In this document: positions 33,001 to 48,000 of the stretch, in pieces
How positions within the stretch are numbered: the first letter of the stretch is position 1
Layout of the letters: each line of letters opens with the position of its first letter
Source: Candidatus Spongiisociaceae bacterium
Lineage (GTDB): Bacteria > Actinomycetota > Acidimicrobiia > Spongiisociales > Spongiisociaceae
Direction: 5' to 3'
Assembly: GCA_965262915.1 (NCBI GenBank)
Contig: OZ253564.1
Coordinates: 3,616,001-3,680,000, forward strand
Length of the DNA stretch: 64,000 bases
Made by a program: the position numbers

Positions 33001-36000
33001 GGACGGAGGGATGATCGAGCGTCAGGAGACGACCACCGTCAACCAGAACCTCCCCGTCGACCGTGATGGTGGGCCGGTCGAACTGGCAGTCGCAGTGGGC
33101 CCGACCCGGACCGACCCGGTCGGCAGCATCAAGCGAGTCGATCCCGAAGTAGAACGCACCGGCATGCTTCTCGCGCTCGAACTGCGGGGCGCCTCTCAGC
33201 CGAACCTTGGGGTTCAAACCGATGAAGGCATGGCGAAGGTAATAGCCACGGCGTGAGAAGACTTCGAGATCGCGCGCCTCGGTCCCTCCCGCTATGTCGA
33301 CCACCGAATTGTCCTCGAATCGGATCTTGAGTGGTACAGCCGGGACGCCGGTCACCGTGGACTCCTCGATCACCGCTGTGCCGGACGTGTGCTCCGGATA
33401 CCAGTTCACCCCGCCATAAGGGAAAGGAGACCAGGATCCGGGCACTTCGAGCGGACCGTTGTCGGTATCGAACCGCATGCGACCGAATCGGATATCGGTA
33501 CCGTATGAGGTAGTCACCCGGATCTCGGAGGAGCCGACGACACGGTCGAGCACGCGCCTCTTGATCTCATAGAAGACCTCTGATGGAAACCGCGCTCCCG
33601 TCGTGAACGCTCCGAGTGTCGCGGTCTGGTGTAGGGCGGCGAGCCTCGATCCGAGCCGCCCCAGTTCCGTGAAGAAGAGCGGTCTTGTATGCACCTCGGC
33701 CCACCACGCGCAGGAGATGACTACGTCGGCTGCCTTCCACGCGGCCACGACGATCGGGCTCGGATCGGCCAAACCCATACCGCCGGGTTTCCATGGGTCC
33801 ACATAGAGGGTGGATACATTCCCTCCGTTGAGAGCAGCAGCCGAAGTGATGGCTCCGATGACCTCCGGGTGCACGGAGTGCTCGGCCAGAACCAGGACGT
33901 ACTCGCCGGCGGTCAGCGAAACGTAGTCCATGAGATTCTTTGCTCCGGCCATCAGCACCGGCGTCAGCCCGGGACCCGGCGGGTTGAGATCGACGTAGGC
34001 TCGGGGCTCTATACTGCCGCCTCCAATCGGTATGTCAACCAGAGCTTCGATCGTAATCGGAGACCCTGACGAGCAACTCCCCGGTTCGTGTACCGGGTTC
34101 CGAGCTGCCTTGGTCTATCCCTGTATAGGTTACTCCGGTGCTCGTCCTGCAGCCGACACCGTGAGCCATCTCAACGTCGAATCCTGATTGTGGGTGCTGC
34201 GGGATCGTCACTCTCATAGCGCGGTGCGCACCGCTTGCGCTTGCCGGCCATGAGTCGCTTCGATGGTCCTTGCCAGGCGGACCCGATGGTCGGCTGGACC
34301 GAAGAGGCGTCTGCCTCGACTCCTGCTCGAGACCGTCCAGCCTACGAGGAGCTCTGCCTACACGCCTTGGTGGAGCACCCGGAACGAACGGGGTGGGGCC
34401 GGGATGACTTCCTCGGTCTTCGGCATTTGCGACCGGGCCATGAGGTTCCCCGGCGGATCCTTCCCGAGCAAACAGGAAGTACGAACAAACCGGCCGCAAC
34501 CAGCACAGCGACACGGCTAACTTAGGTCGGCAAGGCGTAACCAGAGCCCCGGCGCGAGCGGCTTGGACGGCAGGCCTGGGCGCGGTGGCGGACTCATCCA
34601 CCAGAATCGACGGAGGTCAGGAGAATGCCAACCATGAAGGCTGCACAGGTTCACGAAGACCTGAGCTTGAACGTGAACGAAGTGGAGAGACCCTCGCCAG
34701 GTCCGGGCGAGGCGCTGGTCCGACTGCATGCGGCGGGGGTATGCGCCACCGATCTGCATGTCCTCGAGGGCATGATCCAGCCCGACGAGTACCCGATGAC
34801 GGTAGGGCACGAGGGGGCCGGTGTCGTGGTCGAGGTGGGTGAAGGAGCCGCGGTTTCCGTCGGCGACCGGGTAGCCGTCTACAACAAGATCTTCTGCGGT
34901 GCGTGCGAGCAGTGCCTGGTCGGGCGCCAGAACATATGTGACAACGAGCCCGGGCAGTTCGGCTTCAACCTGGACGGAGAGTACGCCGAGTACGTCAACG
35001 CTCCTTCCCGGAATCTGGTCGCCCTACCCGACAATGTCGATTACGGAACCGCCTCGGTGCTCGCCTGCGCCGGCATGACTGCGGTTCATGCGGCCCGGCT
35101 CTCCAATCTGAGCGTCGGAGAGACAGCCGTCGTCAACGGGATCGGGGGGGTCGGCTCGATGGTGCTCCAGGTCGCTGCGCTGGCCGGGGCACGCGTCCTC
35201 GCAGTCGCCGACACCGAGGACAAGCTGGAACTCGCCAAGTCGTACGGCGCGGCCGGGGGCCTGGTGGTCCCCGATGCCGAAGGGTACGACGAGTTGCCCG
35301 ACCGCATCCGGACTTTGACCGGAGGAAGGGGCACCGACCTCTTCTTCGAGCTGGTCGGCACCACGAAGACCATGCTCGCCGGAGTCCGCTCCCTGGCCAA
35401 GCATGGAAGATTCGTGTCCACCGGATACACCGGCGAGTCCCTGGAAATACACCCGATCGAGTTCATCCTTCCCGAGATCGTCTGGGTTTCCACGGTGGCG
35501 GCCACCGTCCGCGACCTCTCCGATGCCATCCGCCTCGCCGCCGACGGGCATATCTCGGTACCCATAGCTGCCACGTACCCGCTTGACGGCGCGGCGGAAG
35601 CACTGGAGAACCTGAGGCAGCGACGGGTGCTCGGCCGCCAGATCCTTGCCTTGGCATGAAGTAAGGGAGGAACAGGAGCATGACAGTCATAGAACGTCCC
35701 AGCATCGACTTCCTGACCCGGCCCAAACGGCTCTTCATAGGCGGTGAATGGGTCGACGGGACCGACTCCTTCTTGACCAGTGACCCCGCCACCGGGGAAG
35801 TGCTGGCCGAGATACCGATCGCCGGCCAGCACCAGGTCGACCAAGCTGTAAGAGCAGCGCAGCACGCGTTCGACAACGGCTGGCGGGACATTGCGCCCAC
35901 CGAACGGCAACGGCTCATCTGGAGACTGGGTGACCTTCTGGAGGAGCACAAGGACGAGTTCGCGGTTCTCGAAGTCCTGGACAACGGCAAGCCGCTGTGG

Positions 36001-45000: not shown

Positions 45001-48000
45001 CCGGCTGGTTCTCGGAACGGCGGTGACCAACCCCCAGACCCGGCATCCGGGGATCGTGGCGGTGAACGCGGCCACCTTGGAGGAACTGGCGCCGGGAAGG
45101 ACCATTCTGGGGATCGGGGTAGGTGATCGGCCGCTCCGGTCGCTGGGGCTGCGACCGGCCCGTCTTGTGGAACTGCGCGAGTCGATCGAGGCCATCAGGC
45201 GCCTGCTGGCCGGCGAACACATGACCTACGACGGGGCCGGGTTCCGGATGGACGACGCCCACCTGCGCTTCGGTTCCTCCTTCCGGATCCCGGTGTTCAT
45301 CTCGGCGAGCGGCCCCAAGACGCTCGAGCTGGCCGGCGAGATAGCCGACGGTGTGATCTTCCTGGGCGGGCTCTTCCGGGACGGCGTCGAGTACGGGTTG
45401 GAACACATAGAACGGGGCGCGCAGCGGGCCGGACGTCCGCGTCCTCACGTGTCGGTGTTCGGCTACGGCGCCATCGACGACCACGACCCCGCCGGGGCGC
45501 TGGAAGCGGCCCGCTCCATCGCCGCGTGGTTCCCCCAGACGGCGCCCTTCTACTGTGATATGGCCGGGTTGGATCCAGCGATCACCGCCGAGGTCAAGGC
45601 CCGATACGCGGGTGGCGAGTTCCAGGAGGCGCTGGCCGCGGCGTCGATCATGCCCGAGTCCTTCGTGAGGAAGATGGCCTTCGCAGGAGACAGCAACCAG
45701 GCGCTGGGCCACCTCCGGACGCTGGCCGATCTGGGGGTGGACTCGGTGACCGTGTTCCCTCTCGGTTCCAAGAGGCGACAAACAGTAGAGGCATTCGCCA
45801 GGGTCTTCTCCCGGCTCTAGAGCCCGATGGTCCAGGAACCAGCTCTCTCGATGTGGCCTCCCCCGCTCAGGATCCACCATGTCGCCTTCGCACACACCCC
45901 GACCTCCGCGCCGCACGACCGGTTCGCTGAACTGTTGGGCGTCCCGGTGTGCCACGAGGAGGAGGGACCGGGATTCATCGAGAGGATGCTGCCTGTCGGG
46001 GACGGCTTTGTGCAGACCCTCGAATCGACCGGACCGGGTGTGATTGGTAAGTTCGTGGGTAAACGCGGGTCCGCGCTCCACCACATCGCTTTCGAGGTGG
46101 AGGACATCCACGAGTATCTCCGACGGCTCAGCAGTCTGGGCGTTCGCCTGATCGACGAGCATCCCCGCCCGGGCGGCATGGGCACGATGATCGCCTTCAT
46201 CCATCCCCGCGAATTCGACGGCCTGCTCGTGGAGTTGGTAGAAACCCGTCGCTGAGTTCCCTATTCGGGTTGCGGCGTCGGGCTCGTCCGTCGTTGCAGG
46301 GGCTAATGAGGACGGATCATGCGTAATGAGGACGGATCATGTGTAATGCGAATTGCTAGTGTCCTGATTCGGGGATTCGTTGTAGATAGTTGGTGAGGTT
46401 GTCGAAGATTTGGTCGGCGGTTTTGTGCCAGATGAAGGGTTTGGGGTTTTGGTTCCAGTGTTGGGTCCATTGGTTGATGGCGTCGGTGAGTTCGGCTACG
46501 GATCGGTGGGTGCCTCGGCGTATCTGTTTGGTGGTGAGTTCGGAGAACCATCGCTCGACGAGGTTCATCCACGACGCGTAGGTGGGTGTGAAATGGAACG
46601 TGAACCGTGGATGGCGTTGCAGCCAGCGCCCTATGGGCTCTGTTTTGTGGGGCGACGCGTTGTCCAACACGACATGGACGTCGAGTTCTGGTGGGACTTC
46701 GCGGTTGATGAGGTTTAGGAACGTCTGGAATTCTTGGGTGCGGTTGCGTCGTGTCATGGAGGTGATGACCCGGCCGGTGGCCGTGTCGAGCGCGGCGTGG
46801 AGGTTGGTGGTGCCGTACCGGCGGTAGTCGTGGGTGCGCCGCTGGGGGGTTCCGGGCAACAGGGGCAGGATCGGCGCGGTGCGGTCGAGGGCCTGTATCT
46901 GGGATTTGTGGTCCACACACAGCACCACCGCCGCGTCGGGCGGGTTCAGGTACAAACCCGCCAGGTCGCGGACCTTTTCCACGAACTGGGGGTCGGGAGA
47001 TATCTTGAAATGCTCGGTCCGGTGCGGCTTGAGACCGAACGCCCGCCATATTCTTAGGATCGACGACTGGGACAGGCCGACGGCCCTCGCCATGGACCGG
47101 GTCGACCAGTGCGTCGCGTCTCTCGGTGTTTCCTCCAGCGTCTTGACCACCACTTCTTCTACCTTGGCGTCGTCGATGCGGCGGGGCGGCCCGGGGCGGG
47201 GATTGTCGTAGAGGCCGTCGAGACGGCGCCGGGCGAAACGGTTCCGCCACTTCGAGACCGTAACCCCGCTGCAGCCCACCTCCGCTGCGATGTCCACATT
47301 GGTGCGGCCTTCGGCCGCTCCCAGCACGATACGAGACCGCATCGCTAACCCTTGTGCGGTGCTACGCCGCCGTATCCACCGCTCGAGCGTCTGGCGTTCC
47401 TCTTCATCCAGCTCGATAACCACTGCTTTACGACCCCGCTGCTTCTCCATACGCTGCTCCCACTACTGACTGCTACTGACCTGCATATTCTAGCAGCATA
47501 TGGCAAAGAAACTAAGGAATCAGGACACTAGGAGCCTGCTGATTATCGGGTTCGGCGAGTTGGCTGTGTTGGTGTGGTGGGGCTGGTTGGGGCTTGTGGG
47601 GTGGTGTTTTGGGTCGGTTGGTGACGGCGGTGATGCTCCTATGGTTGTCAAGTCGGTGATGGGGCCGGTTGGTGGGTTAGGAGCCAGGTCTGGTATTGGC
47701 TGGCGAGTTGGTGGTTGTGGTCTCGGCCGCGTTCGAGTGCGGAGATGCGGCTGGGGTGGGTTCCGAGCTGTTGGGCGGCCTGGGTGACGGTGATGTTGGC
47801 GTGTTGACGTCGGCGGCGGAGCCGGGCGCAGTTCGGGGTTGGTGGCGGGTTGGTCAGCAGTCGGTAGATCTGTGGGGCGATGTGCCGCTTGAGGCAGCGG
47901 ATGATCTCTTTTCGGTTCTTTCCTTCCCCCTGGCGCCGTGCCACGTATTGGTTGGTGGCTGCGTCGTGGCGTATCCGGGTGGTAGCGATCCGCCAGAGCG

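Follow-up and report, generated by a model that had tools for sequence, protein, structure and literature searches.

A split, coenzyme B12-dependent acyl-CoA mutase encoded among hydrolases and redox enzymes raises the question of which acid reaches the mutase, and by what route. Such an arrangement is found in a stretch of 64,000 nucleotides from Candidatus Spongiisociaceae bacterium (contig OZ253564.1, positions 3,616,001-3,680,000; hereafter the window, in whose numbering coordinates are given unless stated otherwise), part of a 5.06 Mb genome assembled as one contig. An earlier note on this DNA had proposed a new B12-dependent carbon-skeleton rearrangement pathway. The analysis reported here indicates that the eleven genes concerned form the core of a catabolic cluster that is conserved in actinobacteria. 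The novelty lies in the context and in the feeding pathway, which appears undescribed, rather than in the rearrangement carried out by the mutase. The reading that we favor, with a probability of about one half, is that the cluster converts thiamine-derived aminopyrimidines to a diacid of the methylmalonate type, which would then be taken by CoA transfer, epimerization and rearrangement to succinyl-CoA.

Eleven plus-strand open reading frames (ORFs) with a high third-position G+C fill positions 34625-46255, in a region of 64% G+C. Families were assigned from Pfam and NCBIfam profile matches, the NCBIfam equivalog cut-offs being quoted per family. The first two genes encode a zinc-dependent alcohol dehydrogenase (ADH, 34625-35659; ADH_N and ADH_zinc_N, below all NCBIfam equivalog cut-offs) and an NAD(P)-dependent aldehyde dehydrogenase (ALDH, 35680-37197; Aldedh, 578 bits, full length). 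They are followed by a two-domain rhodanese resembling 3-mercaptopyruvate sulfurtransferase (37497-38357; two Rhodanese stretches; NF008557, 159.7 bits, cut-off 250) and by M20a, a deacylase of the M20 ArgE/DapE type (38391-39581; Peptidase_M20 and M20_dimer; TIGR01910, 154.6 bits, cut-off 217.6). Then come a NicX/M29-like protein (39578-40540; 22.2 bits over profile positions 208-351 only of PF02073, under the gathering score of 27 for peptidase M29), the 135-residue B12-binding small subunit (40537-40944; B12-binding, 90 bits; TIGR00640, 143 bits, cut-off 57.45) and the mutase large subunit MutL (40941-42533; PF01642 MM_CoA_mutase, 658.3 bits over positions 1-512 of 512; TIGR00641, 655.4 bits, cut-off 303.8). 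The last four genes encode a family III CoA-transferase (CoAT, 42530-43738; PF02515 CoA_transf_3, 376 bits, full length), a second M20/M28 hydrolase, M20b (43735-44832; Peptidase_M20, M20_dimer and Peptidase_M28, with weak NCBIfam matches), a luciferase-like (LLM) oxidoreductase (44837-45820; PF00296 Bac_luciferase, 166.8 bits) and an epimerase-like protein of the vicinal oxygen chelate (VOC) type (45827-46255; Glyoxalase_4; TIGR03081, 89.9 bits, cut-off 114.95). With two starts corrected (GTG at 40537 for the B12 subunit, overlapping the stop codon of the M29-like gene; ATG at 44837 for the LLM, with GGAAGG upstream), five ATGA or GTGA overlaps of 4 bp link M20a, the M29-like protein, the B12 subunit, MutL, CoAT and M20b. 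The other gaps measure 20, 299, 33, 4 and 6 bp. Neither a MeaB chaperone nor a carboxylase is encoded within 34625-46255; the single MeaB gene of the genome lies far away, at genome position 1550913, and a carboxyltransferase gene sits downstream of the cluster both in relatives and in this genome. Insertion sequences (ISs) flank the cluster at 22564-26649 and 46356-55728.

Is this gene set kept together elsewhere? Only three public genomes encode a mutase more than 70% identical to that of the window, and the neighboring genes are common to all three. With the M29-like protein alone as the query, 31 loci were obtained, 13 from metagenomes and 18 from genomes (loci and genomes are designated below by L and G numbers). 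MutL is present in 24 of them, three end at the B12 gene, two are truncated and two are without the mutase. Because the same set recurs in 24 of 31 loci found through the M29-like protein alone, its arrangement is not chance. At least 17 distinct loci hold M20a, the M29-like protein, the B12 subunit, MutL, CoAT and LLM together, in at least three gene orders; for this count, loci of the same contig were merged (L015 with L125, L016 with L120), L103/L117 and L111/L127 were treated as likely duplicates, and L149, from a further genome, was included. Judging by record titles, the carriers are Acidimicrobiia, Nocardioides carbamazepini (strain CBZ_1, L129), Nakamurella, Streptosporangiaceae and other Actinomycetes. 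The eleven co-directional genes and their families, the overlaps across 38391-44832 and the lack of MeaB and carboxylase, all described in the earlier note, are therefore confirmed, and the conserved synteny for which it had suggested searching is observed.

The composition of the cluster varies to some extent. The VOC gene is found in 15 of the 17 complete loci, ALDH is absent from three loci, and M20b, absent from L015/L125, L016/L120 and L132, is an accessory member. MeaB is encoded inside the cluster in three related rows (L111/L127, probably one sequence, and L128). In L110, 16 co-directional genes with gaps of less than 110 bp run in the order M20a, B12 subunit, MutL, CoAT, M20b, LLM, M29-like protein, GntR, VOC, ALDH, ADH, deaminase, deaminase, Amidohydro_2, TenA and ABC ATPase. 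The conserved set comprises neither a dihydropyrimidinase-type gene nor an aminotransferase. The trio M20a-LLM-M29-like also occurs without a mutase, at positions 7725-10950 of L106 and 7769-10960 of L130; in both loci a class I/II aminotransferase gene is located within 3 kb. Among 401 genomes sampled across the phylum, 23 have a match to the M29-like protein at E 1e-30 or better. Only three of these besides the genome studied here are close (65-68% identity) and 19 are distant, including five unpublished genomes (G006, G023, G231, G053, G396) on which no claim is made.

The genes that accompany the cluster point to thiamine. TenA-family genes are found within L016, L017, L109, L110, L127, L132 and L149, and in four of these loci (L017, L109, L132, L149) TenA stands inside the operon, between the regulator and ADH. 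Three of the four TenA proteins scanned reach the TIGR04306 equivalog cut-off of 130 bits (130.5 for L109, 136 for L132 and 168.9 for L101, which belongs to the genome studied here). The L132 protein has a PCxW motif whose cysteine aligns with that of Bacillus subtilis TenA, which we take to be the catalytic Cys135. In five cluster-carrying genomes, all 14 TenA matches lie on the contig of the cluster, within about 50 kb. In the present genome, three of the four TenA loci follow the VOC gene at a distance of 38-55 kb downstream, among densely packed genes for amidohydrolases, amidases and a hydantoinase. In this region, genome positions 3700001-3720000 (L101) comprise two TenA-family ORFs, a third being matched at 3716300 in the whole-genome scan, together with hydantoinase A, a second pair of LLM and Zn-ADH genes, an oligopeptide-type ABC transporter, further Amidohydro_1 and Amidohydro_2 genes, a metallo-beta-lactamase (MBL)-fold protein and a SnoaL-like protein.

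Deaminases and transporters complete this picture. Two TRZ/ATZ-type deaminases are encoded in the operon, and the operon-linked amidohydrolases belong to the group of TRZ/ATZ, guanine and 5'-deoxyadenosine deaminases. Downstream of the operon, G001 encodes a permease, an NMT1/THI5-like binding protein and another TenA, and a comparable permease and binding protein are found next to L126. In L132, M20a is preceded by an NCS1 permease gene, which scores under the cut-off both with the NCS1 model (101.1 bits) and with the CytX hydroxymethylpyrimidine-transporter model (86.4 bits, cut-off 309.85). Because TenA, deaminases and ThiY-like transporters neighbor the cluster, it can be proposed that its substrates are thiamine-derived aminopyrimidines. 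From this gene context, the cluster most likely acts on the pyrimidine moiety of thiamine and the products of its breakdown, namely formylaminomethylpyrimidine (FAMP), aminomethylpyrimidine (AmMP), hydroxymethylpyrimidine (HMP) and pyrimidine-5-carboxylate (PCA). A catabolic role is preferred to salvage, since GntR/FCD regulators recur in or near the cluster and an Rfam scan of the window, L110, L132 and L129 gave no thiamine pyrophosphate (TPP) riboswitch. Moreover, breakdown is preferred to re-use because the salvage elements are combined with genes for oxidation, deamination and assimilation; neither ThiD nor ThiE was found in the loci examined.

The families of the other core enzymes can be accommodated in such a role. 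ADH orthologs, 49-92% identical in related loci and often arranged in the order TenA-ADH-ALDH-deaminase, may oxidize the 5-hydroxymethyl group of HMP to an aldehyde. ALDH has phenylacetaldehyde and betaine-aldehyde dehydrogenases as its best NCBIfam matches, all under cut-off, and is kept beside ADH in related loci. It could convert the aldehyde to pyrimidine-5-carboxylate, or a ring-opened semialdehyde to a diacid. M20a always adjoins the cluster core; its closest solved relatives are DapE and ArgE, and it may be an N-deformylase or N-deacylase, comparable to YlmB or to an N-acyl amide hydrolase. In this respect, a passage of a published study relates YlmB, the Bacillus FAMP deformylase acting ahead of TenA, to M20 proteins of the ArgE/DapE type (PMC10470507). 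M20b has weak matches to families of the N-carbamoyl-beta-amino acid hydrolase type. The best NCBIfam match of CoAT is succinate-glutarate CoA-transferase (NF052585, 268.9 bits, cut-off 750) and its best PDB match is succinate-hydroxymethylglutarate CoA-transferase (9br7, 243 bits). This SUGCT-like enzyme would transfer CoA from succinyl-CoA to a branched dicarboxylate.

For the LLM, Mer is both the best NCBIfam match (NF002619, 171.6 bits, cut-off 276) and the family of the six best PDB sequences (144.7 bits for the top one), and the stronger NCBIfam matches are nearly all to F420-type families. Synthesis of F420 is indicated in this genome by CofE (251 bits, above cut-off), and an F420_oxidored gene lies beside the cluster in L127. 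Thus, the LLM is probably F420-dependent and Mer-like, and might deliver a hydride to an activated pyrimidine ring or to a ring-opened Michael acceptor. In L132, one ORF of 736 residues (13037-15247) contains a full CoA_transf_3 and a full Bac_luciferase domain, a natural CoAT-LLM fusion. The top PDB match of the VOC protein is 3oa4, deposited as a 'glyoxalase' (62.9 bits), and its closest named relatives are methylmalonyl-CoA epimerases (MCEs; 6wf6, 62.6 bits). It does not reach the epimerase equivalog cut-off of TIGR03081, for which another gene of the genome scores 123.4 bits.

The label 'NicX/M29-like', first given from the sequence, is upheld by the fold. An AlphaFold2 model of the protein (pLDDT 87) has NicX (7cn3) as its top Foldseek match (query-based TM-score, TMq, 0.82; E 8e-24), followed by M29 aminopeptidases (TMq 0.62-0.67). 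The crocagin biosynthesis proteins CgnB and CgnE are also among the fold matches (TMq 0.49-0.55). At the sequence level, NicX 7cn3 is matched with E 8.4e-5, and the precomputed Pfam label of the family is PF26233 (label alone). The Fe(II) ligands of NicX, which we take to be His265, Ser302, His318 and Asp320, are replaced at the first two positions (Glu251 for His265, Ala279 for Ser302), whereas the C-terminal H-x-D motif is kept. Five residues, E182, E251, H277, H295 and D297, are invariant across 33 M29-like sequences and presumably correspond to the five-ligand, two-metal site typical of M29 peptidases. Because this ligand pattern resembles that of the two-metal M29 peptidases and not that of NicX, the protein is more likely a hydrolase than a dioxygenase, and could cleave a ring or amide C-N bond. 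The distant homologs of the phylum sample (29-37% identity) were considered and are not informative on the cluster. In the three neighborhoods annotated (L146, L147 and L148), such homologs (31-34% identity) adjoin a DUF1177 gene and a hydantoinase-A-like gene, a separate gene pair that in L146 and L147 is near the chaperone genes ClpB and DnaJ.

A second protein of the same fold is encoded upstream of the cluster, on the minus strand (32936-33958). It is 28% identical to the cluster copy (E 9e-11), keeps a histidine at the position of NicX His265 and has no Pfam or PDB sequence match. Its neighbors are a short-chain dehydrogenase/reductase (SDR) gene (32140-32922, plus strand) and three minus-strand genes, which encode the 2Fe-2S subunit (31533-32015) and the large subunit (29230-31710) of a molybdenum hydroxylase, and an amidohydrolase (27800-29434). 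Conservation above 80% is observed for the SDR and the paralog in L015, L116 and L118 and, in L116 and L118, for both hydroxylase subunits. From its gene families, the segment 27800-33958 looks like an oxidative module for the cleavage of N-heterocyclic rings.

Taken together, these assignments allow the following route to be proposed. After uptake, deformylation by an M20 enzyme and hydrolysis by TenA would yield HMP, the 5-hydroxymethyl group of which would be oxidized by ADH and ALDH to the 5-carboxylate (PCA). A deaminase would remove the 4-amino group to give a 4-oxo acid, in which C6 would be a doubly activated Michael acceptor, able to receive a hydride from F420H2 via the Mer-like LLM. 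The hydrolase with the NicX/M29 fold and the M20 enzymes would cut the C-N bonds, releasing the C2-methyl unit as acetate or acetamidine, plus ammonia, so that C4-C5(-C7)-C6 would be left as a methylmalonate-type, branched C4 dicarboxylate. Methylmalonate could be reached directly if reduction were followed by elimination of N1 and by another reduction, in a manner akin to the reductive methylene-to-methyl step of Mer. The SUGCT-like transferase would then load the diacid onto CoA, probably from succinyl-CoA, the MCE-like VOC protein would epimerize it, and the split B12 mutase would rearrange it to succinyl-CoA. The branched C4 unit would explain the need for a mutase, as it is the one skeleton that requires a mutase of the methylmalonyl type to reach succinate. 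In the literature searched, neither a pathway for catabolism of the thiamine pyrimidine nor a mutase clustered with TenA was found. A passage of a 2024 paper describes the fates of the thiamine oxidation products PCA, thiamin acetic acid and MTA as unknown (PMC11223231).

Several points weigh against this proposal. The substrate is deduced from the gene neighborhood only, and the order of the steps is likewise inferred. We know of no established chemistry by which the CH=N carbon of the ring would become the methylmalonate methyl group, and the sequence of reduction, elimination and reduction is a proposal. The 11-gene stretch of the window itself contains no TenA, deaminase or transporter gene, those of this genome being 20-55 kb off, across inserted ISs; in N. 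carbamazepini and G005, TenA lies 16-50 kb from the core. The TenA of L110 scores 120.1 bits, under the 130-bit cut-off, and VOC, CoAT, LLM, M20a and M20b are all under NCBIfam equivalog cut-offs. L106 and L130 carry M20a, LLM and the M29-like protein with no mutase. The Amidohydro_2 protein found in some clusters is a candidate pyrimidine-5-carboxylate decarboxylase, with distant solved relatives at best (E 2e-12 and weaker). It could strip off the carboxyl group at position 5, and the branched C4 unit would then be lost. Finally, a pyrimidine substrate does not account for the recurrent rhodanese and MBL genes. The rhodanese precedes M20a in all Acidimicrobiia-type loci, and an MBL-rhodanese fusion, or an MBL and a rhodanese gene, is found beside the cluster in L129 and L017. 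This suggests some handling of sulfur, a thiazole-derived fragment being one possibility.

Alternatively, the same cluster, with the same end steps, could serve a different nitrogen compound. This might be another aminoheterocycle, another 5-substituted pyrimidine (thymine, 5-methylcytosine, 5-hydroxymethylcytosine) or an N-acyl beta-amino acid such as a beta-aminoisobutyrate derivative. TenA and the ThiY-like proteins would then form a neighboring salvage or detoxification module. Reductive thymine catabolism indeed yields a C4 unit at the level of methylmalonate, the M20 family includes N-carbamoyl-beta-amino acid hydrolases, to which M20b is weakly matched, and the region is crowded with enzymes acting on many nitrogen compounds (amidohydrolases, amidases, hydantoinases and a molybdenum hydroxylase). 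The distance between TenA and the core amounts to tens of kb in several genomes. It should, however, be noted that in L017, L109, L132 and L149 the operon itself includes TenA, as does the 16-gene run of L110, and that the TenA matches of five genomes are, without exception, near the cluster. Moreover, the conserved set lacks the dihydropyrimidinase-type gene and the aminotransferase, and the failure to find a TPP riboswitch argues against a salvage module. A different nitrogen compound is therefore regarded as possible though rather unlikely, and thiamine-derived aminopyrimidines are kept as the favored substrates.

The next question is whether the mutase itself performs an unusual reaction. 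Its small subunit has the DxHxxG motif (DGHDRG, residues 14-19). The best PDB matches of MutL are HcmA (4r3u, 521 bits) and then human methylmalonyl-CoA mutase (MCM, 448 bits), and its alignments with both show the motifs RQFAG, SVAFD, ARKAF and GYH. R176, H213 and Q166 align to positions of the human MCM and HcmA sequences that we take to be Arg207, His244 and Gln197 in the numbering of the Propionibacterium shermanii enzyme. Hence, a full-length substrate domain, a B12 domain with DxHxxG and a carboxylate-binding arginine with its histidine and glutamine are found as in MCM. The difference concerns Phe58, which stands in the place of what we take to be Tyr89 of P. shermanii MCM, at the substrate and adenosyl site.

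As to the specificity residues of mutases, a passage of PMC2847961 states only that the acid is contacted by few residues. Phenylalanine at this position with the arginine kept (F/R) is found in 115 of the 120 closest protein clusters at 90% identity, the other five, 70-84% identical, having tyrosine. Among the mutases encoded in the gene cluster, 22 of 28 rows have phenylalanine and six have tyrosine (L110, L111, L126, L127, L128, L129), and the full MCM signature Y-A-Q-R-H is carried by basal members (L110, L111/L127, L126, L128, L129). A signature table of 83 rows, comprising 80 public relatives retrieved with the phenylalanine-containing pattern WTMRQFAG and the three copies of this genome, gave 77 F/Q, four F/R and two Y/R rows; the F/Q relatives, over-represented by the search pattern itself, are only about 50% identical to the window mutase. 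In a FastTree tree of 84 rows selected by signature and length (SH-like support, midpoint root), the clade of the window mutase is monophyletic (support 100) and nested among Y/R lineages, with a Y-A-Q-R-H protein as its sister (95), apart from the F/Q rows and from a lone I-D-Q-Q-H row. The stem of the clade is long (0.42 changes per column). Yet, only four fixed differences (A81, L125, C219, G226) separate 44 clade members from 49 Y/R sequences, and none of them falls on the five signature positions compared.

The following explanations of the phenylalanine were rejected on this basis. A switch at position 89 to a new substrate is opposed by the tyrosine of five of the 120 clusters and six of the 28 rows, by the nesting of the clade in Y/R lineages and by the small number of fixed differences. 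A hybrid MCM/ICM signature combining phenylalanine and arginine (ICM, isobutyryl-CoA mutase) was a first impression, dropped in view of the tree, the Y/F variation and the fixed differences. Kinship with ICM was set aside since the F/Q relatives are not the nearest branch in the tree. Among the 150 best representatives of the superfamily at 50% identity (P0241-P0390), about half are without the residues of MCM, ICM or HCM (2-hydroxyisobutyryl-CoA mutase) at the positions compared and show signatures such as V-V-Q-G-C, Q-D-Q-H-G or L-V-Q-L-N; from these residues, some of them may represent uncharacterized specificities or non-catalytic subunits.

From its sequence, the window enzyme is best read as an MCM-type mutase acting on a 2-substituted malonyl-CoA with a free carboxylate, methylmalonyl-CoA itself being the most likely substrate. 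It is probably not a new specificity class, and the rearrangement itself would be ordinary. Three mutase large subunits are encoded in the genome. Because the best-scoring paralog adjoins propionyl-CoA carboxylase genes (carboxyltransferase and biotin carboxylase), that copy is the housekeeping mutase of the propionate pathway and the window copy is an extra, dedicated paralog. The general logic of the earlier note, in which hydrolysis and oxidation of a ring- or amide-containing substrate give a branched acid that undergoes CoA transfer, epimerization and rearrangement, thus agrees with the families found (a SUGCT-like dicarboxylate CoA-transferase, an MCE-like VOC protein and a mutase with the carboxylate-binding arginine). 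Its new carbon-skeleton rearrangement is not supported, in view of the nesting of the clade among enzymes with the MCM signature, the four fixed differences and the complete signature of relatives. That the enzymes process only methylmalonyl-CoA, an outcome which the note had set against its own proposal, is the likeliest state for the mutase step, and the novelty moves to the feeding steps.

A new mutase reaction would nevertheless be expected if a ring heteroatom were retained. Should C6 keep a nitrogen or an oxygen, aminomethyl- or hydroxymethyl-malonate would be the diacid formed, and the mutase would convert 2-(aminomethyl)malonyl-CoA to aspartyl-CoA, or 2-(hydroxymethyl)malonyl-CoA to malyl-CoA, the VOC protein being the matching epimerase. 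Ring opening of a 5-carboxylate with C6 still bound to nitrogen or oxygen could produce such a diacid, and the conserved genes of the cluster include neither an aminotransferase nor a deaminating lyase. The prevalence of phenylalanine at position 89 in the closest clusters, the long stem of the clade and a VOC protein under the epimerase cut-off, in a genome that has a better epimerase, would also fit. However, basal members of the cluster have the complete Y-A-Q-R-H signature, tyrosine and phenylalanine alternate among relatives of 70-84% identity, the clade is nested among Y/R lineages, and the four fixed differences from MCM-signature sequences spare the signature positions. We therefore consider a new reaction improbable. 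The same low likelihood is given to the wider proposal that the cluster provides the missing pathway by which the thiamine pyrimidine is completely broken down, with the mutase and the VOC protein acting on a 2-substituted malonyl-CoA other than methylmalonyl-CoA.

Very little speaks for the absence of any dedicated pathway, that is, for a spare mutase and epimerase of the propionate pathway lying beside unrelated peptidase and redox genes. Each gene, taken alone, comes from a common family, and many ISs have rearranged the region. Against this, the five consecutive 4-bp overlaps couple hydrolases, mutase subunits and transferase, the set is kept in 17 distinct loci of several actinobacterial lineages despite a shuffled order, the housekeeping mutase is encoded elsewhere, beside propionyl-CoA carboxylase, and CoAT and LLM are fused in L132. 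Even less credit can be given to a biosynthetic role, in which the cluster would produce a modified cofactor or a natural product and the mutase would provide an unusual acyl or extender unit: acyl-CoA mutases do supply polyketide precursors in some actinomycetes, and CgnB and CgnE have the NicX/M29 fold, but genes typical of biosynthesis (synthase, ligase, methyltransferase, export) are not conserved in the cluster, where GntR/FCD regulators, uptake transporters and deaminases recur.

If thiamine-derived aminopyrimidines are indeed the substrates, the cluster would be a dedicated sink for HMP, AmMP and FAMP and would alter how the B1 cycle is modeled. These compounds are treated as vitamin precursors traded in seas and soils in passages of two studies (PMC10470507; PMC11452348). 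About a dozen candidate enzymes would become available for unassigned chemistry, among them an F420-dependent Mer-like enzyme acting on a pyrimidine, a hydrolase with the NicX fold and M20 deacylases. The cluster also suggests that the methylmalonyl-CoA pathway can be entered by CoA transfer to a free diacid instead of carboxylation, and it would connect three cofactors, of which B1 would be the substrate whereas B12 and F420 would serve as tools. If the mutase substrate were other than methylmalonyl-CoA, a new adenosylcobalamin-dependent rearrangement would be added, and vitamin B1 catabolism would depend on B12 and F420. A cultured carrier exists, N. carbamazepini CBZ_1. Should the guess about the substrate be wrong, the conserved cluster would still represent an undescribed pathway for a nitrogen compound, with a dedicated mutase.

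The surroundings of the cluster have further features. Downstream, a conserved minus-strand set (L100, 2360-9624, that is, genome positions 3682360-3689624; also L015, L118, L121, L122 and L125) encodes a TRZ/ATZ-type deaminase, a carboxyltransferase without biotin carboxylase, a second VOC protein, an AMP-binding ligase and succinyl-CoA-ligase-like alpha and beta subunits. Its carboxyltransferase is 90-91% identical in five related rows, which represent four distinct loci. Transposase genes of the IS110, ISL3, DDE_3 and DDE_Tnp_1 types are piled up at 22564-26649, 46356-55728 and 58478-59647, and this pile-up splits the cluster from its deaminase and carboxyltransferase neighbors. The gap from VOC to deaminase is about 20 kb in this genome; in L116, the deaminase ORF ends 2.4 kb past VOC. 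The only match of the Rfam scan was the small RNA Ms_AS-4 (22882-22963, plus strand; 86.9 bits, gathering score 50), antisense within an IS110 transposase ORF (22564-23784, minus strand). Among the ISs are also genes for a Schlafen/AlbA_2-domain protein (59655-60536, plus strand) and an AAA_15/AAA_21 ATPase (61084-62538, minus strand), which may be defense genes. At the other end, the window encodes an ABC ATPase (3800-4630), a permease (4646-5485) and an NMT1/THI5-like binding protein (within 4903-6597), a trio followed by a Rieske/VanA-like oxygenase (6682-7659) and an Amidohydro_2 protein (7810-8643). Further on are a Peripla_BP_6 binding protein (9979-11115, minus strand), oxoprolinase-like hydantoinases B and A (11351-15228, minus strand), a class III aminotransferase (15951-17300, plus strand) and an ABC transporter (17484-22124, minus strand).

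Comparison with known systems helps to place the cluster. With the split MCM and epimerase that convert propionate to succinate, it shares a full-length large subunit, a separate B12 subunit with DxHxxG, the equivalents of Arg207, His244 and Gln197, an MCE-like VOC partner and, in some relatives, MeaB inside the cluster. It differs by the absence of propionyl-CoA carboxylase, the acid appearing to enter via the CoA-transferase, and by gene order, since the small-subunit gene precedes that of the large subunit here and follows it in relatives of about 50% identity. In addition, Tyr89 is replaced by phenylalanine in the window subclade, and the housekeeping mutase is a separate gene beside the carboxylase. 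HcmAB and IcmAB have the same two-subunit architecture, and HcmA is the best-scoring solved relative. However, the signatures of HCM, which we take to be Ile90, Asp117 and Gln208 (these HcmA residues can be seen in the alignment with 4r3u), and of ICM, presumably Phe80 and Gln198, differ from the Phe, Ala and Arg of the window enzyme, and the clade groups with Y/R lineages rather than with F/Q or I-D-Q-Q-H rows.

The salvage of thiamine pyrimidines in Bacillus (FAMP uptake by ThiXYZ, then YlmB and TenA) shares several elements with the cluster and its immediate surroundings: a TenA at or above the equivalog cut-off and with a catalytic-type cysteine, hydrolases of the M20 ArgE/DapE type, and an ABC system whose binding protein is NMT1/THI5-like. 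M20a and M20b are likened to YlmB, as a passage of PMC10470507 describes it, at the family level. Here, these genes are joined to ADH, ALDH, deaminases, an F420-type LLM, a CoA-transferase and a mutase, whereas ThiD, ThiE and a TPP riboswitch were not found in the loci examined. NicX, the 2,5-dihydroxypyridine 5,6-dioxygenase of nicotinate degradation, resembles the M29-like protein by its fold (TMq 0.82) and its C-terminal H-x-D motif; the latter protein has Glu251 and Ala279 in place of His265 and Ser302, plus the invariant His277 and glutamates.

Nicotinate fermentation by Eubacterium barkeri provides another case of N-heterocycle catabolism with a B12-dependent carbon-skeleton mutase. There, 2-methyleneglutarate mutase, from another family, acts on the free acid, whereas an MCM-type acyl-CoA mutase would work here together with a CoA-transferase. 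The logic would nevertheless be the same in both systems: a nitrogen-containing ring is reduced and hydrolyzed to a branched dicarboxylate, which a B12 enzyme then straightens or rearranges.

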